Shown here in pieces: positions 2,933-41,690 of a DNA stretch of 64,000 nucleotides (the stretch's first letter is position 1; each line of letters begins with the position of its first letter). The DNA is from an uncultured Gammaproteobacteria bacterium (lineage in GTDB: Bacteria; Patescibacteriota; Microgenomatia; UBA12405; JAHJSD01), in contig CAZCGQ010000001.1 of assembly GCA_964498425.1 (NCBI GenBank), forward strand, positions 99,063-163,062, written 5' to 3'. Below the pieces are notes generated by a model. The model had not been told where the DNA came from, did not search any database, and worked only from the letters and a program-made list of their open reading frames with translations. Made by a program: the position numbers and the translations under genes.

Positions 2933-5029
2933 TTAAGTAGCACTATTTGCAACAATTTCCTCTTGTATATTTTGAGGTACTTGCTCATAGTGTGACGGCT
3001 CCATGTAAAAAGAGCCTCGACCTTGAGTTAAGCTTCGAATAATTGTCGCATAACCTCTAGCTTCAGCCAAAGGCACCAAGGCGTTTATCGTCTTAACCTT
3101 TCCCCGAGTTTCTGTACCTAGAATTTTTGCCCTCCTAGCTGAAAGATCACCAATAACTTGGCCTAAAAATTCATCCGGGGCATTAACCTCTAACTTCATA
3201 ATTGGCTCTAACAAAACCGGCTTAGCCATTTTAGCAGCTCGTTGGGCAGCCATCGACCCGGCAATTTTAAAAGCCATATCTGAAGAGTCAACTTCATGGT
3301 AACTTCCATCATAAACAACCGCCTTAACATCAATTAAAGGATATCCAGCAACAACACCCTTCTCCATTGCTTCAACTACACCCTTCTCAATCGCTGGAAT
3401 AAAATTATCCGGAATTGATGCTCCCTTGATTTCTGAATCAAACTCAAATCCCTCACCTCGTTCCCGTGGTTCAAGCCGCAAATAACAATGCCCGTATTGT
3501 CCACGACCACCACTTTGCCGAATATATTGGCCCTCTGCCTCAGCTGTATTGGTTATCGCTTCCCGATAAGCAATCTGGGGCTTACCTACCTTAACATTAA
3601 CACCAAATTCCCGCTTCATTCGGTCAACCAAAATTTCCAAGTGCAGTTCGCCCATACCGGAAATAATTGTCTGGCCAGTATCATGATCAACTTTGGTTTG
3701 AAAAGTCGGATCTTCTTCCATAAACTTATTCAAAGCAGCACTTAATTTTTCCTGGTCAGCCTTAGTTTCCGGCTCAATCGCTAAAGAAATGACCGGATCA
3801 GTAAATTCAATATTTTCGTAAACTATTGGTCGGGCCGGATCACACAAAGTATCCCCGGTAACCGAATCCTTCAACCCAATAGCTGCAACAATTTCTCCAG
3901 CAAAGCCTTGATCAATTCCCTCACGCTTGTCAGCGTGCATTAATAACAACCGACCAACTCGCTCGGTCCTGTTCTGGGAAGCGTTAAACACCTTGGAAGA
4001 ACTTTCTAAACTACCAGAGTAAATCCGCAAATAGGCTAGCTTACCAACATGCGGGTCGGTTTGAATCTTAAACAGCAGAGCTGAAAAAGGGTCCTTCTTT
4101 CCCGGCTTTCTTTCTTCTTTTTTATCTGTCTTCGGGTTAGTCCCTTCTGCTGGCGGTAAATCCAATGGTGAAGGAAGATAATCAACAATCGCATTTAAAA
4201 TTAACTGTACACTAACCGTGCGACTGTCAGCTCCCATAATCGGGAAAAATTCATTTTTAATAACTCCCTTACGAATTGCTTTCTTTAATTCCTCTTCGCC
4301 AACCTCTTCTCCTTCTAAAAACTTTTCCAAAATTGGCTCATCGACTTCTGCTACCGCTTCAACCAACCGCTCACGATACTTTTTTGCCTTTTCCATAAAT
4401 TCTTCTGGAATTTCAATCTCAGTCAATTCATTGTCCTCAACATCTTCATATTCATAAGCCTTCATTGCAATTAAATCAATTGCTCCCCGCAAATCATGGC
4501 CAAGACCTAATGGAAGTTGAATTGGAGAAGCATTAGCCCCTAACCTTTCCCGAATACTTTCTACTGAACCTTCAAAATCAGCCCCAACTAAATTCAACTT
4601 ATTAAAAACACAAATTCTGGGAACGTCATACTTGCCGGCCTGATGCCAGACTGTTTCCGACTGAGCTTCAACTCCGGTTCGACCATCAAAAACCATTACT
4701 GCTCCGTCCAAAACCCGCAAAGACCGTTCAACCTCAGCGGTAAAATCAATGTGACCAGGAGTATCAATAATGTTAATTCGATGGTCCTGCCAGAAAGTAG
4801 TTACTGCCGCCGAAACAATCGTAATTCCTCGTTCCCGCTCTTGATCCATCCAGTCGGTTACCGTTGATCCTTCATCAACAGACCCCAACTTATAAGTCCT
4901 GCCGGTTTCAAACAACATCCGTTCAGTAGTTGTCGTCTTGCCAGCATTAACGTGAGCAATAATTCCAATGTTCCTGATTAACTCCATCGGAACATCACGG
5001 TTTTCAGTTACTTGAATAGGTTGTGCCAT
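2933..5029 (-). CDS. fusA: Elongation factor G
   Basis: About 700 aa; AHVNAGKTT, DTPGHIDF, NKLN GTPase motifs. The ORF track starts at a TTG (5041); ATG at 5027-5029 (MAQPIQV...) is the more likely start. Confidence 0.95.
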   Translation of the reverse strand: MAQPIQVTENRDVPMELIRNIGIIAHVNAGKTTTTERMLFETGRTYKLGSVDEGSTVTDWMDQERERGITIVSAAVTTFWQDHRINIIDTPGHIDFTAEVERSLRVLDGAVMVFDGRTGVEAQSETVWHQAGKYDVPRICVFNKLNLVGADFEGSVESIRERLGANASPIQLPLGLGHDLRGAIDLIAMKAYEYEDVEDNELTEIEIPEEFMEKAKKYRERLVEAVAEVDEPILEKFLEGEEVGEEELKKAIRKGVIKNEFFPIMGADSRTVSVQLILNAIVDYLPSPLDLPPAEGTNPKTDKKEERKPGKKDPFSALLFKIQTDPHVGKLAYLRIYSGSLESSSKVFNASQNRTERVGRLLLMHADKREGIDQGFAGEIVAAIGLKDSVTGDTLCDPARPIVYENIEFTDPVISLAIEPETKADQEKLSAALNKFMEEDPTFQTKVDHDTGQTIISGMGELHLEILVDRMKREFGVNVKVGKPQIAYREAITNTAEAEGQYIRQSGGRGQYGHCYLRLEPRERGEGFEFDSEIKGASIPDNFIPAIEKGVVEAMEKGVVAGYPLIDVKAVVYDGSYHEVDSSDMAFKIAGSMAAQRAAKMAKPVLLEPIMKLEVNAPDEFLGQVIGDLSARRAKILGTETRGKVKTINALVPLAEARGYATIIRSLTQGRGSFYMEPSHYEQVPQNIQEEIVANSAT

Positions 5030-6088: not shown

Positions 6089-6819
6089 TTATTGGGATTT
6101 GAAAAGGTTTATCCAATTTAACAAACTAATTTCTGAGGGTTTGGCGTTTATTGAAACACCTAGCCCTTGGGTGATTTTGTTTAATCTATCAGCTGAATAA
6201 TAGCCTGACAAATTTTGTTTTAACCGTCTCCCCCCGCCAAAGCCTTGCCTAACAAATTGTTTATATTTATTTTTGTCCTTATCGTAAATCAAGGAATGCT
6301 TTCGCTGATCTACCCTAAATAATACTGCCTCAACTTGAGTAGCAGGCCTAAAGTCACTTGATTTAAAGTGGTGGATGATTAAAAACTTAAACCAAGGCCC
6401 GTGAATAGCTGAAAACTGGGTACTCTTTTTAGCTCCACCCCATCGGAGAGCCGACCTTTTTCGAACGACAACGCACATTACAACTTTCCTTGAACAGCAA
6501 ACGGGAAATTGCTAAATACTTTATATTGAGATTTAGGCAAAGGATACTTCAAAGCATCAAGATTAAATAAAACAACGTTGTCCGGAACTTTATCCAATAA
6601 ATTTTTGGTTAACTGCCTATCTTTTTCAATTGCAATAACCTGCCTGACTTTATCAGCTAATTTTAAAGTTATAATCCCCTGACCAGGACCGACCTCAATT
6701 ACCGTATCCTTTTTTCCAATAGAAGACTTCTCAACCAGCTTTTCTACTAACTGGCGATTGTGAAGAAAATTTTGCGATAGGTGCCGCCTTGCTTTGTACA
6801 CAGCGACCACCCCAAACAA
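6089..6819 (-). pseudogene. rRNA adenine N6-dimethyltransferase (KsgA/Erm family), disrupted by an in-frame stop, a roughly 15-aa deletion and a frameshift near 6478
   Basis: The N-terminal 113-aa ORF has HLSQNFLHNRQLVEKL, VIEVGPGQGIITL (motif I) and VFSNFPF (NLPY-like motif IV). The C-terminal 129-aa ORF is in another frame and aligns to the KsgA C-terminus (SDFRPATQVEAVLFRV and FVRQGFGGGRRLKQNL match PPSAFTPPPKVDSAVVRL and AFNQRRKTIRNSL). A TAA stop lies directly after FAVQGKL. Confidence 0.55.
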
Positions 6820-6873
6820 ATGTAATCATAATCACGATTATTGTAACATAAATGGGAAAAAGTTAAAACTATT

Positions 6874-7371
6874 TTACCAGCGGAGGTGGGAAAAGGCTTT
6901 ATTAGCTTCAGCGGCACGTTCTACTTGTTCTTTCTTAGCATAAGCACCGCCCGTTTGATTAAAAGCATCAATAATTTCGGCAGCTAATTTTTCACCATAA
7001 GTATGATATTGAGAATTTGGTCGATCTCGAGCAGAAGTAATTATCCACCGAATTGCCAAAGAATCTTTGCGGGGACCACGAACCGGCATCGGAACTTGGT
7101 AAGCCGCACCACCAACTCGACGTGACCGAACTTCCTTGTCCGGCCGGATATTATTCAATGCCTGCCGAAAAATAGTCATTGGCTCGGTTTTTTCTTGCTT
7201 CTTAATTAATTCAAAAGCTTTATAAACCTGTTTACGGGCAGCCGTTTTCTTCCCATCCTTCATTGCCCGATTAATCAGCTTCGTCACCAGACGACTGTTG
7301 TAAACTGGATCTTTCTTTACCTCTCGTGGTTTTACCGCTCCTTTTCTGGGCATGTTAAGCTTCCTCCTCAA
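6874..7371 (-). CDS. rpsG: 30S ribosomal protein S7 (uS7)
   Basis: 165 aa with typical S7 sequence; str-operon position after rpsL. Confidence 0.95.
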
Positions 7372-7819
7372 CTGAAGTTTCTAATTCTTCGCCGCCAGTA
7401 TCACCAGTAACACCACTCTTTGGCGTTCCATATTTACTTCGGCTGGTTTGCCGACCAACTACGCCAGAAGAATCGGCGACTCCTCGAACAACGTGATATT
7501 TAATACCCGGTAGGTCCCGTACTCGACCACCGCGGATCAAAACAATAGCGTGCTCAGCTAAATTATGACCTTCACCCGGAATATAGGCAGTAACTTCACG
7601 CTGATTAGACAGTCTTACCTTGGCTACTTTCCGCAAAGCCGAGTGCGGTTTCTTCGGCGGCATAGTTTTAACCTGAGTAACAACCCCCCTCTTCTGAGGC
7701 GACTGAACCTTAATCAACCGCCCTTTAAGGTTGTTTAACTTCCCGTGCAAAGCCGGGCTTTTTGATTTTTTCTTTGGTTGTTTTCGGCCCTTCCGGACCA
7801 ATTGATTAATTGTTGGCAT
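7355..7819 (-). CDS. rpsL: 30S ribosomal protein S12 (uS12) with an unusual acidic C-terminal extension
   Basis: [12 protein letters not shown]...; conserved PKKPNSALRK-like and RGGRVKDLPG regions. It ends ...[27 protein letters not shown], about 18 aa beyond the usual C-terminus, and overlaps the rpsG start by 17 nt. Confidence 0.93.
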
Positions 7820-7856
7820 AATTTAATACCTTCGTGCTTCGTATTTTAACATATTA

Positions 7857-30775: not shown

Positions 30776-32368
30776 CTAATCCCTTTCAAAATTCCAAAAC
30801 CAATCCCATTCTGGCTCCTCAATTTCTTCAATATCCGACTCTTCCAACCTATATTCCCCATCATAATCTCCAACTTTCTGTGTTCCCTCAAAATATTTAT
30901 GAATTAACTTTTCATCAATTAAGTCCGCCGAATAAAACTTAACAAAGACCGTATTTTCTTCATCCTCTACTTCCTCAGATTTAACAAATACAACATACAA
31001 AGTATTTTCATAACCTTCCTTCCACCGCTCAAATGTCCAGTCAGTATATTCCCGGGAAAGCAAATCATACGCCTTTTTTAATTCTCCAGTTGTTTGATAA
31101 TTATAAAAAGCCCGAACACATTCAAGTGGACTTTCGTTCGGCTTAAATTCAATTTTCTCAACGTCAGCAACTGGGTCATCAGCCTTCCGCATTTCATCCC
31201 ACTTTTGATTAATTAGATCATTAGCAGATATCCCAAAACTCAATCCTTCTCGATACAACTGATTTACCCCATAAACTTTGCCGCAAATATCAATCATCGG
31301 ACCACCGCTCATTCCATGGCCTAGTTGGATATCCGTTTGTATCATCTTAGTTGGAAATCCCTCTGGTTGTCTAAGATCAATAAAATGTCCTTTATTAAAA
31401 GTTGCTTCACCGGGTACCGAAGTCCCCAAGGGATAACCAACAGCAATTAACTCATCTAAATTTTCTAGATTGTTAACATCACCAAATTCTAAACTTGGTA
31501 TATTCTCTAGGCCAGAGTCTACCTGAATAAGTGCCAAATCTGATTCCTTATCCGCAGCAATAACCTTCCCTTGCAAAGGGGTGTAGTCCGGCAAAACAAT
31601 CTTCGGTCTCATGTCTCTGGCAATAACATGATGATTCGTCACTACATAGGGATCAGCTATGAGAAATCTGTTTTTCTTAACAAGAAAACCTGAGCCTTCA
31701 ACATTCCTGCCAATAATTCTAACTACACTTTTTTTAACCTCTTCAACTGTTTCCTTTTCATCACAAAGAAGCCTGCTTTCCCCAATTGCCGTCTCAAGTC
31801 TAACCACCCTTTCCGTCAACTGCCAATTTCTCCAACCCAAAAAGCCAATTACTGCCACCAACAGCAACACCCCTAACTTTCGAAAATTCAAATTTATTTT
31901 TTTTCTTTGTCTCTTAGCTCCCAAATATACAAAGTCCTTTTCATCTTTCTTGCGCTCGATTCCTTCAAAAAACTTCCGAACCGGTTTAAATATCCTCAAA
32001 ATCCAAACCAAAAACTGAAATACAAAAAAAAACAAAAAATAATCACCGACTAAACCAATCCAAGTATTCCCTACATCAGCGCTCATCGCAAACCAAAGCA
32101 GAAAACCAAGTTGCCCAATAAAAAATATCAGCCGTGCAAAACGAGCCCTTTCCCCAATGTTTTTATAAATCAATTGGTAAAGAAAAAGAAAAGAAGGAAC
32201 AAAAAACAAAATACTTAAATATCCCAACCACTCAATCTCCAAAAACTCACTCGACACATACATTCCCACCCCAATCAAAAAAGCCCCAACAACAAAAACC
32301 TTATTACTAAAAATAACTTTGGACTTGGATATTAATCTATTACTTTCTCTCACTCCACTCTTCGGCAA
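30776..32368 (-). CDS. Membrane-anchored trypsin-like serine protease (S1/DegP-like)
   Basis: N-terminal multi-TM region; catalytic triad contexts TNHHVI (His), DLALIQVD (Asp), [11 protein letters not shown] (GxSGGP Ser). Confidence 0.75.
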
Positions 32369-35300
32369 ACAATTCAGCTTGATCTAACACAGTCTTGGTC
32401 GCCTTTTCTTGCTTGTCCGGTGGGTAATTATATTTTTTAAGCAATTTCTTAACATATATTCGCAATTTAGCCTGAACGTCTTTTCTCTTAGTCCAATCAA
32501 TGGTTGCATTTTTTTGGATTAAACCTAACAATTCTTTTGCCATCTCGCGTAATACCTCATTCCCTAACTCTCTTACAGCACTCTCGTTTTCTGCCAAAGC
32601 ATCATAGAAAGCAACCTCTTCTTCACTTAACCCTAATTCCTTACCCTTTTCCTGCTCTTTTTGGATTTCTTTTGCTAAAGATACTAATTCTGCAATTACT
32701 TCAGCTGAGGAAATTGTTCGATCCTGATATTTCTTAATTGTGTTTTCAAGCATTTCTAAAAATGTTTTTGAAGCGACAATATTTTTTCTTGACATTTCCT
32801 TTATACTGTCATTCAATAATTTTTTCAAAATCTCAAAAGCGAGATTTTTATGCTCCATATCTTGAACTTCCCTCAAAAACTCTTCACTTAAAATCCCGAT
32901 CTCTGGTTTTTCAATCCCAACTTCCTCATATATGTTAAGAACTTCATCTGAAACGATTGCATTGGAAAGTATTTGTTTTATGGCCGCATCGTAATCAGCT
33001 TCTGTTGGCCCTCCCTCTCCGTCATCCGGTTCTAATTTAATTATTCCGGCCTTTACCGCTTGAAAAAAGGCAACCTCCTCCCTTATTTTTAGTGCTTCTT
33101 CATGGGGTACAGCTATAGAAAATGCTTGACTCAATGCTGAGACCGCTTTTTTGTACCTTTCGGCACCATCTTCTAAGCTTAAGATAAAATCAATTGCCTC
33201 TGTTATAATTTCCGTCCGTCTACCCTCATCAACTTCAAAATATTCCATATATTCAAACCTGTGAAAAAGACTCTTTACAACTTCATATTTTTCCTTCAAT
33301 ACCTGAACCGCTTCGTTCTGCGGTACACCAGTAAGCTTCCGGTCTTCTTTAGTGTAATAGGATAATGCTTTTTGTAATTCACTAGCAATTCCAAGATAAT
33401 CAACAATCAGTCCTGCTTGTTTATCCTTGTAAACTCGATTAACCCGAGCAATTGCCTGCATTAAAGAATGTCCATTCATTGGCTTATCAACATACATCGT
33501 ATGCAAAGAAGGAACATCAAACCCCGTTAACCACATGTCACAAACTATTGCTAATTTTAATTCATCATCAGGGTTCTTCATCCGCTCAGCCAGTCTATCT
33601 CGCCCCCTTTTGTTTCTAATATGAGGCTGATATTCTTGAGGATCACTTGCCGACCCAGACATAACTACCTTTATTTTTCCTTCATCTAACTTATCACTAT
33701 GCCAGTCGGGTCGTAATTTTGTGATTTGAGTATAAACATCTACAGCAATTCTTCTACTCATCGTTACAATTAGCCCTTTGCCCTCGATAACGTTCAAACG
33801 TTCTTCAAAATGACTAACAATATCCTTGGCTACTAAACACAGCCGTTTCTCAGAGCCAACCATTTTTTCCAAACGAGCCCATCTAGCCTTTATTCTTTCC
33901 TTTCTTGTTGATTCTTCACCTGCAGTAATGTCTTCAAACTCCCGATTTATCCTCTTGCTTTCTTTTGCATCTAATCCTATTCGGGCAAGCCGGGCCTCGT
34001 AATAAATAGGAACGGTTGCTTCGTCCTGGACCGCCCGCGAAATATCATAAGTATCGATTACATCTCCAAAAACAGCAACTGTATTCTTATCTTTTAAAGC
34101 AATCGGCGTCGCTGTAAAACCAATAAAAGATGCATTAGGCAAAGCATCACGAATATATTTTGCATAACCATATTTAACTGTTCCATTTTCTAACTTAGCC
34201 TGAAATCCATACTGACTTCGGTGAGCTTCATCAGCAATGACAACAATGTTTCTTCTCTCTGAAATAGTTGGAAATTTAGTCTTATCATCTTCTGGTAAAA
34301 ATTTTTGTACGGTTGTAAAAATAACACCACCTGAAGCAACATCTAATTTCTCTTTTAAATCTTCCCTGCTTTGGACTTGCTTTGGACTCTGACGAAGCAA
34401 ATTCTTTGACTTAACAAATGTGTTAAAAAGTTGATCATCCAAATCATTTCGGTCAGTAATTACAACCACAGTTGGATTATTTAATTCCTTAATCAACTTG
34501 CCAGCAAAAAAAGTCATCGTTAAACTCTTACCACTTCCTTGGGTGTGCCAAATTACTCCAATTCGCTGATCACCCTTTTCATCTGTAGCCTCTCTTGCTT
34601 TTTCCAAAGCTTTATTTGTTGCGAAATATTGATGATAACCAGATACTATTTTCTTGATATTACCTCTGTCATCATGAAACGTAACAAAATTAGTAACTAA
34701 ATCCAGTAATCTGTCTTGGTCAAAAATTCCTTTAACTAAAACTTTGGTTTCATTATGCGATCTCGGGGCAATTACCTTACCGTCAATACTTCGCCATTTT
34801 AAAAACCATTCCCAAGGTGAAGTAATAGTTCCACATCTTGCCTGAACTCCATCGCTAATAACTAACAACTCATTGTAAGCAAACAAAGAGGGTACTTCTC
34901 TTTTATAAGTTCTAAACTGCCGAAATGCATGTTTAATGGTTGCTCTTTCTTTAGCTGGATTTTTTAATTCAAAAACTGCTAAAGGTAAACCGTTAACAAA
35001 AACAACCACGTCAGGGACACGATTATTTTGACCTTCAATAATCCGAAACTGGTTAACTGCCAACCAATCGTTATTTGCAGAATCCTGCCTATCAATTAGC
35101 CAAACTTTATCACCCTGTATTCTTCCATCCTCAACCTTATATTCAACGTCGACACCGTTAATCAGCATATCATGAAAAATTTCGTTGTTAGTTTCTAACT
35201 TTGGACTACGGTTAGGAACATTTAAAACTTTCCGCAATGCTTCTATTCTAGCCGACTCAGGAACTTCTGGATTTAACCTGTTAATTGCTCTTTCTAACCG

Positions 35301-35468
35301 CTTTTCCAAAACCACATCGTCATAAGTCATACGCTCAAACGGATCAAACCTACCATTTGTTTCCGTCACCGGCTCCGGACTAATATCCGGCCCAAACATT
35401 GTTTGGTACCCTAATTTCTCGAGCCAACCTAAAACTGCTTTTTCCAGTGATGATTCTTTATATTTCAT
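32340..35468 (-). CDS. hsdR: Type I restriction enzyme R subunit
   Basis: HsdR_N hallmark [19 protein letters not shown]; helicase motif [12 protein letters not shown]; motif [12 protein letters not shown]; 1042 aa. Confidence 0.93.
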
Positions 35469-36228
35469 TAAGATTTTTTAAGAAGTTTATAAAAGTCCTG
35501 AAACGTAATACTTTTTCGCTGTCCAAAACATCATTAATTACATCTTTATTCATTTTTTCCCCAAATTTTTCGGCAAAGTGAGTCTCCCTATAATTTTTAC
35601 CTAAAAGCCTAGAATGTATTTTTTCTAATTGATTTTTGGGCTTAATAAAATACTTTTCAGGATCTATTTTTGACAAATCACATTCAAGTACGCTATTTAT
35701 CGCTTCTTCCTCCATCCCTAATTTAAGAAGTATTTTAGGCATAGACAAATACCATGCTTCTAGCTCCATCACAGAGTAATAAATTGAAACTTTATTACCA
35801 TCGATGGTTTTGCAAACTCGCTTTGCTTCTTTTTCAAAATCTTCTATAACATTATTATCTATCTCATCGCCAGCTAGATCACAATAATCTTCACTATATA
35901 TATCTCTTAAACCACATATGTAGTCTTTCTGGCCCCTAACCAAATCATCATTTGTAGTAGATAAAAACTTATTACCATACTTCTTTATCCAACTCAAAAC
36001 CTTTTTATCACCTCCAACATTATGCAAAACGATGTTCAACTCAACTTCATCTAAATTACTACCATTTTTTGAGGGAAAATCACGATAGGCCTTTCTGTAG
36101 GGATTATCCGAGAAAAACTCAATGCATTTTATTTTAACTTTCTGTGAATCATAATTATAAAGAACTAAAATTAACTTATAAACAAATATAAGTTCCGACA
36201 TACCTTCAACAACTATATATACTTTCAT
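35458..36228 (-). CDS. Toprim-like (DUF4276/DUF4435-like, OLD-family type) protein, partner of the upstream ABC ATPase
   Basis: N-terminal [15 protein letters not shown] (hhhVEGxxE, Toprim beta1 Glu) and acidic cluster [12 protein letters not shown]. 256 aa. 23 nt downstream of the ATPase gene and overlapping the hsdR start. Confidence 0.5.
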
Positions 36229-36251
36229 TTACTTTTTAAAAAATAAAAACT

Positions 36252-37370
36252 TCATTTAAGTTGCGAAAGCAGATCTGACGAAAAAACGTCAAAATTCGAT
36301 AAGCCTGTTTTCTTAAAATTATCAAAGACTTTTTTATTAGTTTTATAATTATAAGCTTTAACCTCATAGTTTTTTCTACTTAAAATATTCCAATACTTGA
36401 CATTAACTGCATTCATTAGAACCTCGTCATTCGTTGTTGCAATAAGTTGAACATTATTCTTCTTAGTTCTTTGAACGATTAGATGGGAGAGCTTTCTCGC
36501 TCTTTCATAATCTAAACCCTCACAAAGATCATCAATGATTAAGGTCGAAAAATTATTTGTACTTATCACTTGATGTAAAATAACTAAAATAGAAAAAGCT
36601 CTATACATGCCATCGGAAATTGACATTTGCTCTATTGGTTTAGGAATTCCTTCTTCTTTAAAAATTAGATATTTACCAGACTTAATAACATTATTAATTA
36701 TTAAGTCAATTTTTTTTGTTGTTACATCTTTTAAGTCATAACCTACACTATTAAAATCGTCTATAATCATTCTTTGCTTGGATTTAGATAACCCAGAAAA
36801 AATAAGTGGAACTATATTTAAACCCCTGAGTTCCGCTAATTCATCCCGCTCATCAGTACTTATATCAGTAGGTCTATTAAACCCAAAATATATTCCTCTC
36901 ACAGATTCAGCCCAGTTTACAAGAGACTCTAGAAAAGGAAACTCTTTTGTATCTCGCCTGACATGTAATACTAATTTGTTTTTAGGAGGATTCAACTTCA
37001 CTTGATCAGGTTTATTTTTTAGCTTGGAAGCCATTTGTGCCTTAGTATCAGACCGCAAAAGTTTCTTTTCATTATTTAAAACTAATTTTTCCTCAATTAC
37101 TTCGTGATCTTTTACCCTTAAGCAATATTTAAGCTTGTCGTTTGTATCTTCATCATGAAATAAAGCCTGCCAATGACCATTTAATACCCCTCTTTTTTCA
37201 GTAATAACATATGCCAAATTCCACACAACACGAACAGTTCTGGTCTTCCCAGTCGCATTTTTACCAACGATTAGATTTATATTTGAGAGATTAAGATTAT
37301 CTAATGCCCAAGGATTTTTTGAATCGTTAGTATGCTCTTTATATTTTATTGAGGTTAATTTAAATGCCAT
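36252..37370 (-). CDS. ABC-type AAA ATPase (AAA_21/AAA_15-like)
   Basis: Walker A LIVGKNATGKT; signature-like MSISDGMYRAFSIL; Walker B STLIIDDLCEGLD; H-loop region LIATTNDEV. 372 aa. Confidence 0.7.
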   Translation of the reverse strand: MAFKLTSIKYKEHTNDSKNPWALDNLNLSNINLIVGKNATGKTRTVRVVWNLAYVITEKRGVLNGHWQALFHDEDTNDKLKYCLRVKDHEVIEEKLVLNNEKKLLRSDTKAQMASKLKNKPDQVKLNPPKNKLVLHVRRDTKEFPFLESLVNWAESVRGIYFGFNRPTDISTDERDELAELRGLNIVPLIFSGLSKSKQRMIIDDFNSVGYDLKDVTTKKIDLIINNVIKSGKYLIFKEEGIPKPIEQMSISDGMYRAFSILVILHQVISTNNFSTLIIDDLCEGLDYERARKLSHLIVQRTKKNNVQLIATTNDEVLMNAVNVKYWNILSRKNYEVKAYNYKTNKKVFDNFKKTGLSNFDVFSSDLLSQLK

Positions 37371-37400: not shown

Positions 37401-38651
37401 TTAACTTTTAATTCTTATCCTCCCACTCATTAATCTCGGCAAAAGTAAATCGCGGATTTTATTCAAGTTTCGGGTTTCTTTAACATTTTTAGTTATATTA
37501 ATACGTAGTTGGTTAACAGTCTCTGTAAAATGTCTAACTATATTAGGCGATGGTATTAGCAAATCAAAGCTTCTTATTTCTGTGGCATTTATACTTTTCC
37601 TTGTTGTTCCAGTGCTAGCTCCAGATACAAAAGTTTGAAATATAGGTGAATTTAAATAGTAAAAAAGAAAATAAGCCGTTGTTATGCTTGGCTCTTTCAT
37701 TTTAAGTCTAATTAAGTAGGATGCAAAAACAGCATCCTCACTGTCATTATCAATGATAGCAACTTTTCCTGGATCAGCCATCCTTGCAATGACAATATCA
37801 CCTTTCTTGAGCTTGTATTTTTCCAAGCCAGCGTTATCTATTTCACAAAACGGTACAGCATCCCATAGTATCCAATCGCTTTTATTTATATCCGTTACCC
37901 TTAAAAAGTGCGGGCCCACCTCTTGTTCACAAGCGGATTGGGTGTAACCGTACTGTGTATTTGCCACATCACCTATTTCTTTTACTTTCCAGTTTTCCGG
38001 AATTTCACCAAGCTCTGTATCTTTCAAGATACCTCCACCCGATTTAAAAGGTTCACCTTCCAAATCAAATTCATTTTTTTCAAAATTCCAAGGGAATTCA
38101 AAATCAATAAACCAATGTTTAAATATTGCTTTTCCAATTTCCTCTAAGGTTTTATTTGTCTTTTTATTTAATTTGATTTTGTCATCAAGGGAGGAAAGAA
38201 TAGAAATGATTTGTTTAATTTCTGCGTCTCGTGGAATTAATAAACTAATTTTTTTGACATCTGATTGCCTTATAAGTGGTTGTGTACTTCCTGCATTTAA
38301 AGAGGTAAAATCAAATAATTGTAAGCAATAATAAAGATATTTCAACCTGTCCGTATCGCTACACTTAAAATATAAAACGTTATCAGAGGGCCAACATTTT
38401 TCCTCTTTAAAGTAAATCTCACCAAGTGTTCCGACTCTTCCAATCAATACAGATGGACCACTTATTAAATAGTCATCCAATTTCCCTAGGACTCCATTAG
38501 CTCCTAATACTGGAAATTGACCCTCTTTTTTTCTCTTCGAAGCAGGTAAATATTTTCCAGAAGCAATATTGAACACTTCACCTAATTCCTTGAATTCCCA
38601 GCCTTTTGGGACTTCATCCGTTTGTAATTGATTCCTTTTTCTTTTATTCAT
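37401..38651 (-). CDS. hsdS: Type I restriction-modification specificity subunit
   Basis: Two target-recognition-domain halves with conserved spacer; N-terminus KGWEFKELGEVFNIASGKYLP... is typical of HsdS. Confidence 0.85.
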   Translation of the reverse strand: MNKRKRNQLQTDEVPKGWEFKELGEVFNIASGKYLPASKRKKEGQFPVLGANGVLGKLDDYLISGPSVLIGRVGTLGEIYFKEEKCWPSDNVLYFKCSDTDRLKYLYYCLQLFDFTSLNAGSTQPLIRQSDVKKISLLIPRDAEIKQIISILSSLDDKIKLNKKTNKTLEEIGKAIFKHWFIDFEFPWNFEKNEFDLEGEPFKSGGGILKDTELGEIPENWKVKEIGDVANTQYGYTQSACEQEVGPHFLRVTDINKSDWILWDAVPFCEIDNAGLEKYKLKKGDIVIARMADPGKVAIIDNDSEDAVFASYLIRLKMKEPSITTAYFLFYYLNSPIFQTFVSGASTGTTRKSINATEIRSFDLLIPSPNIVRHFTETVNQLRINITKNVKETRNLNKIRDLLLPRLMSGRIRIKS

Positions 38652-38980
38652 TTACTTAAAATATTAAATACTTGTAATAAGAAACTAATAGTAATTAAAA
38701 GCATTCCCAAGTTCCCTAACTGTTTGTACTTTAATGCTTTCTTTTTTTCTTCTTCATCAATTTGTTCTAGTATGAGATGCTGATGTCCCTCTGTATCTAA
38801 TTTGGGAGAAAGTCCAAAAAAGAATAACAACAAGGAGCCAATAAAACCTAAAATTGCACTCCAAAAATCAAGGTTTTTCATTAATTCTAATACCAAATTA
38901 AAATTAATAAATACTTTCAAAGCTTCTTTATTATTTTTAAGAACCATTACTTTCATTTGTCTACTTTCCCGTAAATCCAT
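38648..38980 (-). CDS. Small two-TM membrane protein inside the R-M operon
   Basis: 110 aa; TM1 FWSAILGFIGSLLLFFFGL, TM2 LGMLLITISFLLQVFNIL. Its stop overlaps the hsdS start. Confidence 0.5.
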   Translation of the reverse strand: MDLRESRQMKVMVLKNNKEALKVFINFNLVLELMKNLDFWSAILGFIGSLLLFFFGLSPKLDTEGHQHLILEQIDEEEKKKALKYKQLGNLGMLLITISFLLQVFNILSK

Positions 38981-39672
38981 CTATACAAAGACATCAATAA
39001 CGGCCAAAAAACAAAAACAATTAAAAACCACACAATCAACCAAGGAATTTTTAATACTTCTACGTATGAAGATATGTCTACTAAAACAATTGGCTTATGC
39101 AAAATGCTAACTTGACCCAATTGCATAATTCCAAGAAAAGCTAATAACCATAGGGTGTCTATTGGCCAAGAATACCGATAGCTATTCCAAAAAGCTAAAA
39201 CAGGTTTTTTATTGTGTATCTCATGAAGCACTTCACCAATTAACAGGCCTTCTTCTGTTGGCCTGTAATCCCATTTTTTGTTATCTCCAAAGGCACTACT
39301 TTTAAAAGCATGTGTTTCCCTGTCTAAAAGTTCTAGCCCTTTTATTACTTTTTCCTTCGCCTCTTCGCCTTTTTTTTCATCGACTCTTTCTACTACCTCT
39401 ATATAACCACGCCAAAAAAGGTTAGATATTATGTGATTAAGTTCGTTTTCATCTTTTTTAGACTTAAATTGTGTAGTTTCTTCTATCCATTTTTTAAAAT
39501 TCTTTCTACTGACAAAATTAGATAAATGTTGATGTCCTTTACCATAAGCTGTTTGTAAAAAAGCAGCTTCATACTTCCACAGATGTTTGTATTTAGAAAT
39601 ACCTTGTTCATCTCTTATTTGCTGGTAAATGTTTAGCTTCTTTAGAAATCTTGATGGAAAATTCAAATTCAT
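38953..39672 (-). CDS. Hypothetical protein with soluble N-domain and two C-terminal TM helices, inside the R-M operon
   Basis: 239 aa; C-terminal hydrophobic helices PIDTLWLLAFLGIMQLGQVSIL and IPWLIVWFLIVFVFWPLLMSLY. Confidence 0.5.
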   Translation of the reverse strand: MNLNFPSRFLKKLNIYQQIRDEQGISKYKHLWKYEAAFLQTAYGKGHQHLSNFVSRKNFKKWIEETTQFKSKKDENELNHIISNLFWRGYIEVVERVDEKKGEEAKEKVIKGLELLDRETHAFKSSAFGDNKKWDYRPTEEGLLIGEVLHEIHNKKPVLAFWNSYRYSWPIDTLWLLAFLGIMQLGQVSILHKPIVLVDISSYVEVLKIPWLIVWFLIVFVFWPLLMSLYRWIYGKVDK

Positions 39673-39702
39673 ATTTTAAACCTCTTTATTTTAATTGTGT
39701 TT

Positions 39703-40137
39703 TCATTGGATATTTTTTTCGTATTCTTGGTTTGCTAAAATATCTACTCTTTTTGCTAAATCTGCCGTTCTGGGATGATGAAAATATTCAACTTTTTTAT
39801 ATCTTAATTCAAACGATTTTGCCTTGTCATAAAGAGGTTTAATGTGGTCTTTTCTCATTCTATATTCACCAGTCATCCATTTAATTACTAATTCACTATC
39901 CATCCATACTTCAACTTCACGTCTCGTGTGTTCTGTTGCCTTATCTAAGGCATAGATTAATCCACTGAATTCAGCCTGGGGAACAGTCATTTCACCCAAA
40001 AATTTAGAATATTCATGTTCATTTCCTGCCTCATCAATAAAAAGTACCCCACACGCAGATTTCCCTCTACCGCGCCTGCCTTTAATATGAGCATTTGGAA
40101 TTTTACAACAAGAATCAACTATAATTTTGAATGTCAT
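39703..40137 (-). CDS. RNase HI-like (RNase H type 1 fold) protein
   Basis: Four catalytic carboxylate contexts in order: IVDSC (Asp), QAEFSG (Glu), WMDSELV (Asp), TADLAKRVD (Asp). 144 aa. The start overlaps the hsdM stop (ATGA). Confidence 0.65.
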   Translation of the reverse strand: MTFKIIVDSCCKIPNAHIKGRRGRGKSACGVLFIDEAGNEHEYSKFLGEMTVPQAEFSGLIYALDKATEHTRREVEVWMDSELVIKWMTGEYRMRKDHIKPLYDKAKSFELRYKKVEYFHHPRTADLAKRVDILANQEYEKNIQ

Positions 40138-41690
40138 ATCTCAAATCCTACTTTTTTCAAATTTTCTTTTATCTTTTTTTCTAATTTTTTTGATTCTTGA
40201 AATTGTTCAGAGAGTTCGGAGGTGAGGCGGGTCATTTTTTCTTCAAACTCTTCATCGTCAATAATGTCAATTTCAATTCCAACATAACGACCGGGGGTAA
40301 GAACGCAATTGTTCTTTTCTACTTCTTCCAGCGTCGCGGATTTGCAAAAGCCTTTTGTATCTTCGTAATCGCCACCTTTTTCTTTCCACTCGTGATAAGT
40401 ATTGGCAATTTTGTCAATTTCTTCCTCGGTTAATTCGCGGTGGCGGCTATCAATCATTTCCCCCATATCCCGAGCATCAACAAATAGAATTTCATTTCGC
40501 CTCTCTCTGTCATCATTACTCTGTTTATGCCTTGATAAAAACCATAAAGTACAAGGAATGGCTACGTTATAGAAGAGTTTATCCGGCATAGCAACAATAC
40601 AATCTACCAAATGGTCTTCGATTATTGCCTTCCTAATTTCCCCTTCATTTGAAGTTTGTGACGCAAGGGATCCATTTGCCATTACAAATCCAGTGATTCC
40701 TTTTGGGCTTAAATGATGAATGAAATGCTGAATCCAAGCATAATTAGCATTACCGGTAGGCGGCGTTCCATATTTCCACCGGACATCATTTTTAAGTTTT
40801 TCCCCTCCCCAATCACTGATATTAAAAGGCGGATTAGCTAAAATATAATCAGCCTTCAAATCAGGATGCAAGTCATTATGAAAGCTGTCACCGGGTTCCC
40901 CACCTAAATCACCTTCAATGCCGCGAATTGCCAAATTCATTTTGCATAACTTCCATGTGGTTGGGTTAGATTCCTGGCCGTAAATTGAAATATCCTGTAT
41001 TTTTCCGCCATGCTCTTCAACAAACTTTTTGCTTTGAACAAACATTCCACCACTCCCACAACAAGGATCATAAACCCGCCCCTGATATGGCTCAATCATT
41101 TCTACTAGTAAGCGAACAATGCAAGTGGGCGTAAAAAATTCACCGCCCCCCTTACCTTCCTGGCTAGCAAATTTGCCGATGAAATATTCATAGACACGAC
41201 CAAAAACATCTTGTGATTCTTCCTTGTTACCCTCCATGTTAATACCGCTAATTAAATCCACTAACTCTCCCAGTACTGTTTTATCCAATTCCTCTCGACT
41301 GTAGCGCTTAGGAAGTACACCTTTTAATGTTTGATTCTCTTTTTCAATTGCGATCATTGCATCATCGATAATTTTGCCAATCTGCGGATCCTTGGCATTT
41401 TCCCTGATATATTGCCATCTGGCCTCTTTTGGCACCCAAAATACATTATGCATACTAAAAGCATCTTTATCTTCCACAAAGCCTTTTCCCAATTCCGGGT
41501 CTTTTTTAATCTCTTTCATCCGGTTTTCAAAAGAATCTGAAATGTATTTCAGGAACAATAGTCCCAAAAAAACATGTTTGTATTGGGATGGATCCATATT
41601 ATTCCGCATTTTGTCGGCAGCCTTCCAAATCTCTTTCTCAAAACCCAATTTAGCTGAAGAATTATTTCTCGACATATTTAATTTTACCAT
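40134..41690 (-). CDS. hsdM: Type I restriction-modification DNA methyltransferase subunit
   Basis: HsdM N-terminal EKEIWKAADKMRNNMDPSQYKHVFLGLLFLKYISD; SAM motif DPCCGSGGMF; catalytic LANPPFN (NPPF). An alternative ATG lies at 41675. Confidence 0.93.
   Translation of the reverse strand: MVKLNMSRNNSSAKLGFEKEIWKAADKMRNNMDPSQYKHVFLGLLFLKYISDSFENRMKEIKKDPELGKGFVEDKDAFSMHNVFWVPKEARWQYIRENAKDPQIGKIIDDAMIAIEKENQTLKGVLPKRYSREELDKTVLGELVDLISGINMEGNKEESQDVFGRVYEYFIGKFASQEGKGGGEFFTPTCIVRLLVEMIEPYQGRVYDPCCGSGGMFVQSKKFVEEHGGKIQDISIYGQESNPTTWKLCKMNLAIRGIEGDLGGEPGDSFHNDLHPDLKADYILANPPFNISDWGGEKLKNDVRWKYGTPPTGNANYAWIQHFIHHLSPKGITGFVMANGSLASQTSNEGEIRKAIIEDHLVDCIVAMPDKLFYNVAIPCTLWFLSRHKQSNDDRERRNEILFVDARDMGEMIDSRHRELTEEEIDKIANTYHEWKEKGGDYEDTKGFCKSATLEEVEKNNCVLTPGRYVGIEIDIIDDEEFEEKMTRLTSELSEQFQESKKLEKKIKENLKKVGFEI

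Follow-up and report, generated by a model that had tools for sequence, protein, structure and literature searches.

The window, by which we mean the whole 64,000-nt stretch of DNA that we analyzed, contains an ABC-type ATPase gene and a separate OLD-type Toprim gene between hsdS and hsdR of a type I restriction-modification operon. Our best explanation, to which we assign a probability of about 60%, is that the two genes form a horizontally acquired cassette of an ABC ATPase and an OLD-type Toprim nuclease that occupies a variable hsdS-hsdR slot, is cotranscribed with the hsd operon, is closest to the candidate system HEC-01, and functions by a PARIS-like mechanism. At the coordinates given in the initial annotation, both ORFs are present, at 36252-37370 and 35458-36228 of the minus strand. 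The operon, in which hsdM is the first gene, contains the following features:

40134-41690, minus strand: hsdM, 518 aa (N6_Mtase, 6e-111; HsdM_N, 6e-28)
38648-40137, minus strand: second embedded block, three genes in the hsdM-hsdS interval
39703-40137, minus strand: RNase H-like gene of this block (RVT_3, 4.7e-13, and RNase HI-type NCBIfam matches)
38953-39672, minus strand: 239-aa gene of this block
38648-38980, minus strand: 110-aa gene of this block
37401-38651, minus strand: hsdS, 416 aa, upstream of the ATPase gene (Methylase_S, 1.1e-42, in two stretches)
36252-37370, minus strand: ABC-type ATPase gene, 372 aa (AAA_21; HEC-01A-like), predicted sensor/scaffold subunit
35458-36228, minus strand: OLD-type Toprim gene, 256 aa (DUF4276-like; HEC-01B-like), predicted nuclease effector
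32340-35468, minus strand: hsdR, 1042 aa, downstream of the Toprim gene (HSDR_N, SWI2_SNF2, ResIII, T1R_D3-like, and T1RH-like_C domains)

The cassette is tightly embedded in this operon, with spacings around it of -11 to +30 nt: 30 nt separate hsdS from the ATPase gene, the ATPase and Toprim ORFs are distinct with a 23-nt gap, and the end of the Toprim gene overlaps the start of hsdR by 11 nt. Junctions of the second block measure -4, 30, -28, and -4 nt, and its 239-aa and 110-aa products gave no Pfam match above the cut-off and no PADLOC match. Promoter and terminator scans inside the operon yielded no excess over the shuffled expectation. We also observed a terminator-like hairpin at 42058-42029, which belongs to the gene preceding hsdM. 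Neither Rfam families nor tRNAs were found in the window, and thus nothing points to a retron-like noncoding RNA, despite structural matches to retron ATPases. The cassette is AT-rich and foreign-looking, with a GC content of 30-31% relative to 39.3% for the window, within the lowest 2.5% among same-size windows.

This tight embedding, including the Toprim-hsdR overlap and the lack of an internal terminator signal above chance, would fit a dedicated accessory of the type I enzyme that physically joins HsdR, HsdM, and HsdS and modulates or backs up restriction, comparable to PrrC silenced by EcoprrI. Precedents for genes of this sort inside type I loci include the rlo genes and prrC. PrrC, a case also cited in bioRxiv 10.1101/2024.01.29.577857, is an ABC-type NTPase effector whose gene lies between hsd genes and which the type I enzyme EcoprrI holds latent. 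As one polypeptide with an anticodon-nuclease domain in place of a Toprim, it resembles our cassette in position only. The wider distribution argues against an accessory role, which we regard as improbable. Of the 85 genome and metagenome loci that carry related cassettes, just 2 have an hsd gene within 10 kb and 83 do not, indicating that the cassette is autonomous and mobile and that its family as a whole is not specifically tied to type I restriction. Cargo differs among related hsd operons: in 10 of 11, the hsdS-hsdR slot holds other genes, among them a KwaB-like gene and one for a further AAA_21 ATPase, and one (L106) is without any insert. The existence of this bare operon makes "inserted" a reasonable term for the window cassette. 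Flanking genes identified by their domains bear out the placement between hsdS and hsdR made in the initial annotation. At E < 1e-4, none of the 25 related hsd loci yielded a relative of the ATPase-Toprim pair.

The two genes are strictly paired. In each of the 85 genome and metagenome loci, the Toprim gene follows immediately after the ATPase gene; the scan pattern behind this set did not cover the IVVEGMSE of the window, whose genome lay outside the set. The same order was found in 18 of 19 viral contigs, with the 19th contig ending within the Toprim gene, and adjacency and order are thus constant in all of the >100 related loci that hold both genes. Furthermore, the two proteins coevolve, with a Mantel r of 0.96 that was reached by none of 999 permutations, and ATP-binding and acidic residues are near-invariant among 74 cassettes whose mean difference is about 60%. 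More than 1,100 homologues of the ATPase (best nonself match at 44% identity, E = 5e-87) and 762 cluster representatives homologous to the Toprim protein at E ≤ 0.001, along with the constant pairing in the 85 loci, support both ORFs as real genes rather than chance reading frames.

Many related cassettes reside in polysaccharide loci (capsule or rhamnose) or adjoin housekeeping genes, and some neighbor MADS genes (mad3, mad2, or mad8) or type IIG restriction-modification genes. No more than about a dozen of the 141 genes immediately next to related cassettes match defense models at E ≤ 1e-10, a figure that is an estimate because counts were given per model. This low figure, like the polysaccharide and housekeeping surroundings, weighs against our preferred explanation, which the MADS and type IIG neighbors support. 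The cassette also occurs in one Bacteroides prophage lineage, on a contig that begins in a terminase-like gene. Nothing in the GenBank phage collection matched the ATPase at 1e-6, and only two matches came from plasmids. An autonomous cassette in such different contexts, with its foreign-looking composition, could also be a selfish addiction module resembling toxin-antitoxin systems, in which the ATPase restrains a Toprim toxin and the pair stabilizes its carrier locus (hsd operon, capsule locus, or prophage) without sensing phage. The Pfam description of AAA_21 as "putative AbiEii toxin" is in line with this idea, as is the result that the single HEC-01 representative tested gave no protection against any phage used (bioRxiv 10.1101/2024.01.29.577857), which also counts against our preferred explanation. 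However, the closest characterized relatives (PARIS, OLD, Gabija, and retron ATPase systems) are all phage-triggered defenses (PMC11464382), and toxin-antitoxin-like and abortive-infection behavior can coexist. We consider a purely selfish module unlikely and favor a phage-responsive defense cassette, for which the motifs of the ATPase are informative:

37242-37265, minus strand: Walker A GKNATGKT, residues 36-43, as read from the sequence
36606-36620, minus strand: ABC signature-like motif ISDGM, residues 251-255
36510-36545, minus strand: Walker B and D-loop TLIIDDLCEGLD, residues 276-287, with D281 where the catalytic Glu is expected
36429-36431, minus strand: Asn314 at the H-loop position, where canonical ABC/AAA_21 ATPases have His

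The initial annotation described a typical AAA_15/AAA_21 ATPase with GKNATGKT, ISDGM, and a Walker B motif within LIIDDLCEGLD (277-287), all of which are visible in the translation. The AAA_21 assignment was upheld by a match to Pfam AAA_21 (PF13304) at 47.5 bits (E = 3.3e-12; gathering cut-off, 27 bits) over profile positions 1-303 of 304, and the fold of an ABC ATPase with an SMC/Rad50-like head is present along with its Walker A, signature, Walker B, and D-loop elements. In contrast, "typical" overstated the case, as the Glu that usually follows the Walker B Asp and the usual H-loop His are replaced by Asp281 and Asn314. All 74 cassettes, without exception, have K42, G41, and N38 of Walker A, S252 and G254 of the signature-like motif (family consensus LSQGM), and Walker B D280; D281 is found in 73 of 74 and aligns to the Glu of Rad50 and of a canonical AAA_21 protein (L094). 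Asn314 is likewise Asn in 74 of 74 and aligns with the Rad50 His and with the His of TTHSP in the same AAA_21 protein. The Asp-for-Glu and Asn-for-His changes suggest tight ATP binding with slow hydrolysis. Against PDB sequences, the ATPase profile had no match below an E value of 0.01, and the single ATPase sequence matched Rad50 weakly.

The Toprim protein carries three conserved acidic motifs:

36193-36210, minus strand: VEGMSE, residues 7-12, with the Toprim Glu E8 ending strand 1 and E12 four residues on
35902-35913, minus strand: GLRD, residues 106-109, closing strand 3 and retaining a single Asp of the canonical DxD
35752-35766, minus strand: ELEAW, residues 155-159, after strand 4, with two more conserved carboxylates

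Structure prediction for this 256-aa protein gave a confident model (pLDDT of 91.5) with a Toprim fold in which a Glu ends strand 1, supporting the OLD-type Toprim partner proposed initially. The five best solved-structure matches include OLD C-terminal regions, GajA, and AriB, and the joint-best match is the uncharacterized PH0156. E8 is found in 73 of 73 cassettes and E12 in 72 of 74, with the same spacing as E26/D30 of AriB (PMC11464382). After strand 3 (residues 103-109 in the model), the DxD motif is reduced: the sequence reads GLRD-I-Y, with Leu and Tyr at positions 107 and 111 and D109 (74 of 74) as the only acidic residue. E155 is present in 73 of 74 cassettes, and both E157 and W159 are present in all 74. 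The suggested link to DUF4276 (PF14103), which is itself a Toprim family (PMC12065111), was recovered at 27.0 bits (E = 6.1e-6) over profile positions 40-178 only, below the gathering cut-off of 30.2 bits; the alternative suggestion of DUF4435 found no match. At the family level, homology to DUF4276 is well supported, with 39 of 42 Toprim relatives matching at E ≤ 0.01 (best, 1.1e-9) and one relative (P0002) scoring exactly 30.2 bits. Furthermore, a Paraburkholderia protein annotated by PGAP as a DUF4276 family protein aligns with E8, G9, E12, GLxD (here GLQD), ExE, and W all kept. The Toprim profile had no match to PDB sequences below an E value of 0.47. Because the ATPase is missing the usual catalytic Glu and H-loop His and the Toprim DxD is down to one Asp, neither activity is assured.

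Alternatively, the pair might be a RecF- or Rad50-like ATPase with a nuclease that has a housekeeping role in DNA repair or recombination. The ATPase did not cluster with housekeeping ABC or RecF-like proteins; its RecF score was 26 bits relative to a cut-off of 172 bits, and both a coiled coil and an Mre11-like partner are missing. Its actual partner is an OLD-type Toprim protein, and the characterized split-gene pairings of that fold class are defense systems. Considering also the patchy distribution, AT-rich composition, variable contexts, and prophage carriage, we find a repair function highly improbable.

For the preferred defense cassette, we infer that a trigger-released nuclease mechanism similar to that of PARIS is the best account of how the two proteins work. 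The ATPase, with its Walker A and signature motifs intact, would dimerize around ATP and hold the Toprim protein inactive in a complex. A cue from a phage or mobile element may then alter the ATPase so that the nuclease is freed or activated; candidate cues include an anti-restriction protein that disables the adjacent type I enzyme or a drop in nucleotide levels. The acidic metal site of the Toprim protein (E8, E12, D/E74, D109, E155, and E157) would cut tRNA or DNA and stop growth of the infected cell, so that the cassette would function in abortive infection. Because the Walker B DD and H-loop Asn are essentially invariant across 74 diverse cassettes, one could also envision the ABC subunit as a switch that hydrolyzes ATP very slowly or not at all and reads nucleotide status or an anti-restriction protein. 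Such a switch would license a Toprim protein with a rebuilt metal site (one DxD Asp plus ExE and D/E74) and, in this operon, serve as a guard for the coexpressed type I enzyme, firing once that enzyme is neutralized. This more specific idea is speculative and rather unlikely, but if true, it would provide a first function for the phenotype-less HEC-01 class.

If active, the pair would be one more abortive-type ABC ATPase-Toprim module riding inside restriction operons and a natural test case for embedded modules that back up a restriction enzyme disabled by phage. The native hsd context and the Bacteroides prophage relatives point to trigger conditions, such as anti-restriction proteins, for HEC-01, and the conserved DD and Asn offer a mutational handle on whether ATP hydrolysis is needed or binding alone suffices. 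In other respects, the pair is a routine annotation of an architecture that was already known.

Among named systems, the OLD family (class 1 P2 Old and TsOLD; class 2 BpOLD) and GajA have the ATPase and Toprim fused in one polypeptide, and class 2 OLD and Gabija carry a UvrD-like helicase that is absent beside the window cassette. We rejected OLD classes 1 and 2 and Gabija due to the two separate ORFs and an operon without a helicase besides HsdR. PARIS, for which the mechanism and related AAA_15/21-Toprim systems have been described (PMC11464382), was rejected since the partner matched neither DUF4435 nor an AriB model. AriA is a 55-kDa protein that needs its Walker B Glu E393 for ATP turnover, whereas the window ATPase has 372 aa and the DD and Asn; relative to AriB, the window Toprim protein has a DxD cut to one Asp and an extra ExE motif. 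The ATPase did match one "AriA" model, PDLC02980, at 5e-17, but this model has 304 positions, matches the same residues as Pfam AAA_21, and is therefore probably generic; a second AriA model, PDLC02979, matched only 8 of 59 ATPase relatives. MADS, which is methylation-associated, pairs the DUF4276 homologue Mad4 with an ABC ATPase (PMC12065111, PMC11464382). MADS was rejected: the window contains no other mad genes, the Toprim protein did not match mad4, the remaining operon genes include hsdM, hsdS, and hsdR, and the ATPase matched mad8 alone among MADS models (1.2e-4).

AbiL (AbiLi/AbiLii) and RloA/RloB resemble the window pair in that an AAA_21 ATPase has a small partner from the Toprim superfamily (RloB). 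In Campylobacter, the rlo genes sit inside type I hsd loci as our cassette does, and RloB in type I restriction-modification loci is cited by PMC12065111. Although AbiLi was the best PADLOC match of the ATPase (2.8e-19), we rejected both systems since the Toprim protein matched neither RloB nor AbiLii, which were matched, all weakly, by 1 and 3 of 42 Toprim relatives, respectively.

The cassette is most consistent with HEC-01, a PADLOC candidate (AAA_21 plus DUF4276) consisting of the ABC ATPase HEC-01A and the TOPRIM protein HEC-01B that was identified through guilt-by-embedding (Payne et al., bioRxiv 10.1101/2024.01.29.577857). The window ATPase matched HEC-01A models at 7e-11 to 1e-9, and HEC-01B models were the only PADLOC matches of the Toprim protein, although weak (2e-3 to 7e-3). 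Among the relatives, HEC-01B was matched by 39 of 42 Toprim proteins (best, 1.9e-12) and HEC-01A by 47 of 59 ATPases. HEC-01 has the same two-gene architecture and gene order and is likewise embedded in a methylation-based defense system, with Hma as its host in place of the type I restriction-modification system of the window. The cassette is probably a divergent copy of this already known kind of candidate anti-phage module.

Between 32.3 and 41.7 kb of the window, eight genes lie on the minus strand with junctions of -28 to +30 nt:

40134-41690, minus strand: hsdM, with full, strong Pfam architecture
39703-40137, minus strand: RNase H-like gene (RVT_3, 4.7e-13), overlapping the hsdM stop by 4 nt
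38953-39672, minus strand: gene for a 239-aa protein
38648-38980, minus strand: gene for a 110-aa protein
37401-38651, minus strand: hsdS, with full, strong Pfam architecture
36252-37370, minus strand: gene for the 372-aa ATPase
35458-36228, minus strand: gene for the 256-aa Toprim protein
32340-35468, minus strand: hsdR, with full, strong Pfam architecture

The hsdR start codon lies within the final codons of the 256-aa gene, an overlap of 11 nt, and in our scan the block showed no excess of promoter- or terminator-like sites over shuffled sequence. Due to these tight junctions, the hsdR overlap, the lack of excess internal signals, and a strong hairpin (42058-42029) that ends the gene preceding the hsdM block, the eight genes read as a single predicted operon. 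We also observed a second embedded block between hsdM and hsdS (38648-40137, minus strand), consisting of the RNase H-like, 239-aa, and 110-aa genes. The 239-aa and 110-aa proteins both contain hydrophobic, membrane-like segments and had no Pfam match above cut-off and none in PADLOC; this block may be another uncharacterised embedded module.

Metagenomes yielded HsdR relatives of 47-56% identity in 25 loci, and the hsdS-hsdR junction was visible in 11. One to three genes separated hsdS from hsdR in 10 of the 11 and none did so in L106. This cargo differed among loci:

L086, 2385-3922: a KwaB-like gene and, before it, a gene for a 193-aa protein
L094, 5077-6300: a different AAA_21/AAA_15 ATPase
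L088, L092, and L097: Y1_Tnp-like (Y1-transposase-like) proteins of about 200 aa
other loci: proteins of 333-351 aa without a family match

No relatives of the ATPase-Toprim pair were found in the 25 related loci at E < 1e-4, and between hsdM and hsdS the related operons carried YhcG/DUF1016 nucleases, HEPN-type NTase_sub_bind proteins, and a Fic protein. The ATPase and Toprim genes have GC contents of 30.8% and 29.7%, respectively, against 39.3% for the window, so that both rank among the lowest 2.5% of windows of their size. The varied cargo, the bare L106 junction, and the AT-rich composition of the embedded genes together make insertion of the cassette into a variable slot of the hsd operon well supported. 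Such an insertion agrees with "guilt-by-embedding" as published for Hma, BREX, DISARM, and type I R-M systems (bioRxiv 10.1101/2024.01.29.577857).

Such a position could also suggest that the pair is a dedicated accessory of the hsd enzyme, which we consider improbable: an hsd gene occurred within 10 kb of a related cassette in only 2 of 85 genome and metagenome loci (L001 and L025), with the pair embedded in neither, and the cassette family as a whole has no tie to hsd genes.

[quoted passage not shown] The Pfam scan that it called for returned AAA_21 for the ATPase (47.5 bits versus a cut-off of 27). The ATPase also had weak SMC_N and RecF-type matches. In PADLOC, the ATPase matched AbiLi (2.8e-19), several HEC-01A models (7e-11 to 1e-9), and a 304-position "AriA" model that is apparently generic AAA_21. 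Its family is large (>1,100 matches; nearest non-self protein 44% identical), and an AF2 model based on 59 homologues was confident (pLDDT 90.9). Because of these matches and this model, we take the ATPase to be a compact ABC head that lacks a coiled coil.

In Walker B, the Asp is followed by a second Asp where Glu is the norm, and Asn replaces His at the H-loop position (36528-36533 and 36429-36431); HMMER alignment placed the Glu and His of Rad50 at these positions, and a canonical AAA_21 ATPase encoded in one of the related hsd operons reads EE...TTHSP there. Across 74 cassettes from several phyla, the Walker B substitution occurred in 73 and the H-loop Asn in all 74, whereas the Lys of Walker A and the Ser and Gly of the signature motif never varied. 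ABC proteins in which Asp replaces the Glu and the H-loop His is lost have "degenerate" nucleotide sites, where ATP is bound but poorly hydrolysed. By analogy, this ATPase family may bind ATP and hydrolyse it poorly.

The 256-aa protein alone gave DUF4276 at 27.0 bits, below the 30.2-bit cut-off, and HEC-01B at only 2e-3. One distant relative emerged from a first search, 44 from a profile search, and 762 cluster representatives from exhaustive HMMER. Among 42 aligned relatives, DUF4276 and HEC-01B each matched 39 (best 1.1e-9 and 1.9e-12), OLD-like_TOPRIM matched 10 weakly, mad4 and AbiLii 3 each, and RloB 1. The structure prediction that the initial annotation had suggested was confident (AF2; pLDDT 91.5, pTM 0.90) and bore out a Toprim fold of the OLD type. 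These family matches and this model thus point to an OLD-type Toprim with a helical extension, in agreement with placement of DUF4276 in the Toprim superfamily (PMC12065111).

The conserved residues are E8, which closes strand 1; E12; an acid at position 74 (72/74); D109, which closes strand 3; and, beyond strand 4, E155, E157, and W159. AriB, whose metal-site residues are E26, D30, D88, E90, and E122 (PMC11464382), has an identical E-x3-acid spacing. The canonical DxD is cut to a single Asp (GLRD-I-Y), and the ExE pair possibly substitutes for the missing acid; a PGAP-annotated "DUF4276 family protein" has the same pattern of one Asp plus ExE.

In each of the 85 genome and metagenome loci, the Toprim gene immediately followed the ATPase gene, with both on one strand. 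Of 19 viral contigs, 18 showed this arrangement too, and the remaining contig ended within the Toprim gene. Pairwise distances of the two proteins correlated across 74 cassettes (r = 0.96, reached by 0/999 permutations), showing that the two genes travel together, a correlation that shared history alone can yield.

The contexts of related cassettes varied. Upstream neighbours included aconitase, sugar-nucleotide enzymes, 23S_rRNA_IVP proteins, and a few Eco57I-type methylases. At 1e-10, an estimated dozen at most of 141 immediate neighbours matched PADLOC, counts being per model; the matches included mad3 (4), mad2 (2), mad8 (2), type IIG R-M (2), DpdF (1), and PsyrT (1). Several cassettes lay within polysaccharide loci, including one in a Bacteroides finegoldii capsule operon between a tyrosine kinase and a sugar transporter (NZ_OY725969.1 47414-49205, a plasmid record) and two in Arcicella adjoining RmlD or RmlA genes (L006 and L008). 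A near-identical lineage of IMG/VR contigs (L113-L130, 25-59 kb; 99.7-100% over 2.5 kb) carried the cassette about 7 kb from terminase-like sequence, the first 730 nt of L113 sharing 82% identity with the terminase gene region of Bacteroides phage BS-TP2; therefore, the cassette is prophage-borne in Bacteroides. Because hsd genes are rare, defence neighbours few, and the settings extend to polysaccharide loci and a prophage lineage, the cassette is autonomous and mobile, with defence association only one of its contexts. Autonomy in such different contexts would also suit a TA-like addiction module, a reading we regard as unlikely.

Strong mad3 (2.9e-80), mad8, and mad2 matches adjoined the cassette in a few of the 85 loci, where it is thus beside, or inside, a MADS methylation-associated defence locus; judging from ORF size and an SMC_N match, these are probably cyanobacterial loci such as L030, L033, L043, and L073. 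PRiA4_ORF3-domain proteins flanked the cassettes of L001 (upstream, 6431-7843) and L004 (downstream, 4192-4899), which are the two closest from metagenomes. In L001, a Shedu SduA_C gene also lay a few kb away, as did an hsdR gene.

An AlkD-like DNA_alkylation gene (235 aa, E about 1e-39) lay directly downstream of the Toprim gene in all five Bacteroidota loci tested (L032, L037, L045, L046, and L056). An ORF of matching size was present directly 3' of the Toprim gene in about 15 more loci of Bacteroidota. This neighbour may reflect a functional association or merely local synteny conserved within one clade. Considering the range of contexts of the cassette, we find a repair function for the pair very improbable.

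The best-supported mechanism is a PARIS-like defence model, to which we assign a probability of about 0.6, in line with the abortive-infection role first proposed for the pair. An ATP-bound ABC dimer or oligomer would sequester the Toprim nuclease until a phage cue released or activated it, and the freed nuclease would cleave tRNA or DNA, aborting infection. Because the cassette adjoins a type I enzyme, an anti-restriction protein would make an attractive trigger, in the manner of PARIS and PrrC. Only one HEC-01 representative has been tested, and it conferred no protection (bioRxiv 10.1101/2024.01.29.577857).

Both the ATPase-Toprim architecture and its embedding in R-M loci are already well established. 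What stands out is the conserved non-canonical catalytic residues of the ATPase, the altered Toprim acidic motif, two separate embedded cassettes within one hsd operon, and a HEC-01-type class still without a demonstrated phenotype. Among known systems, PARIS was ruled out as the partner of the ATPase is not DUF4435, AbiL/RloAB as it is not RloB, and MADS as the window has no other mad genes and the pair no mad3 or mad4 match; a fused OLD or Gabija enzyme was likewise ruled out. The description that fits the pair best is that of a divergent member of the AAA_21 plus DUF4276 (HEC-01-type) candidate systems.
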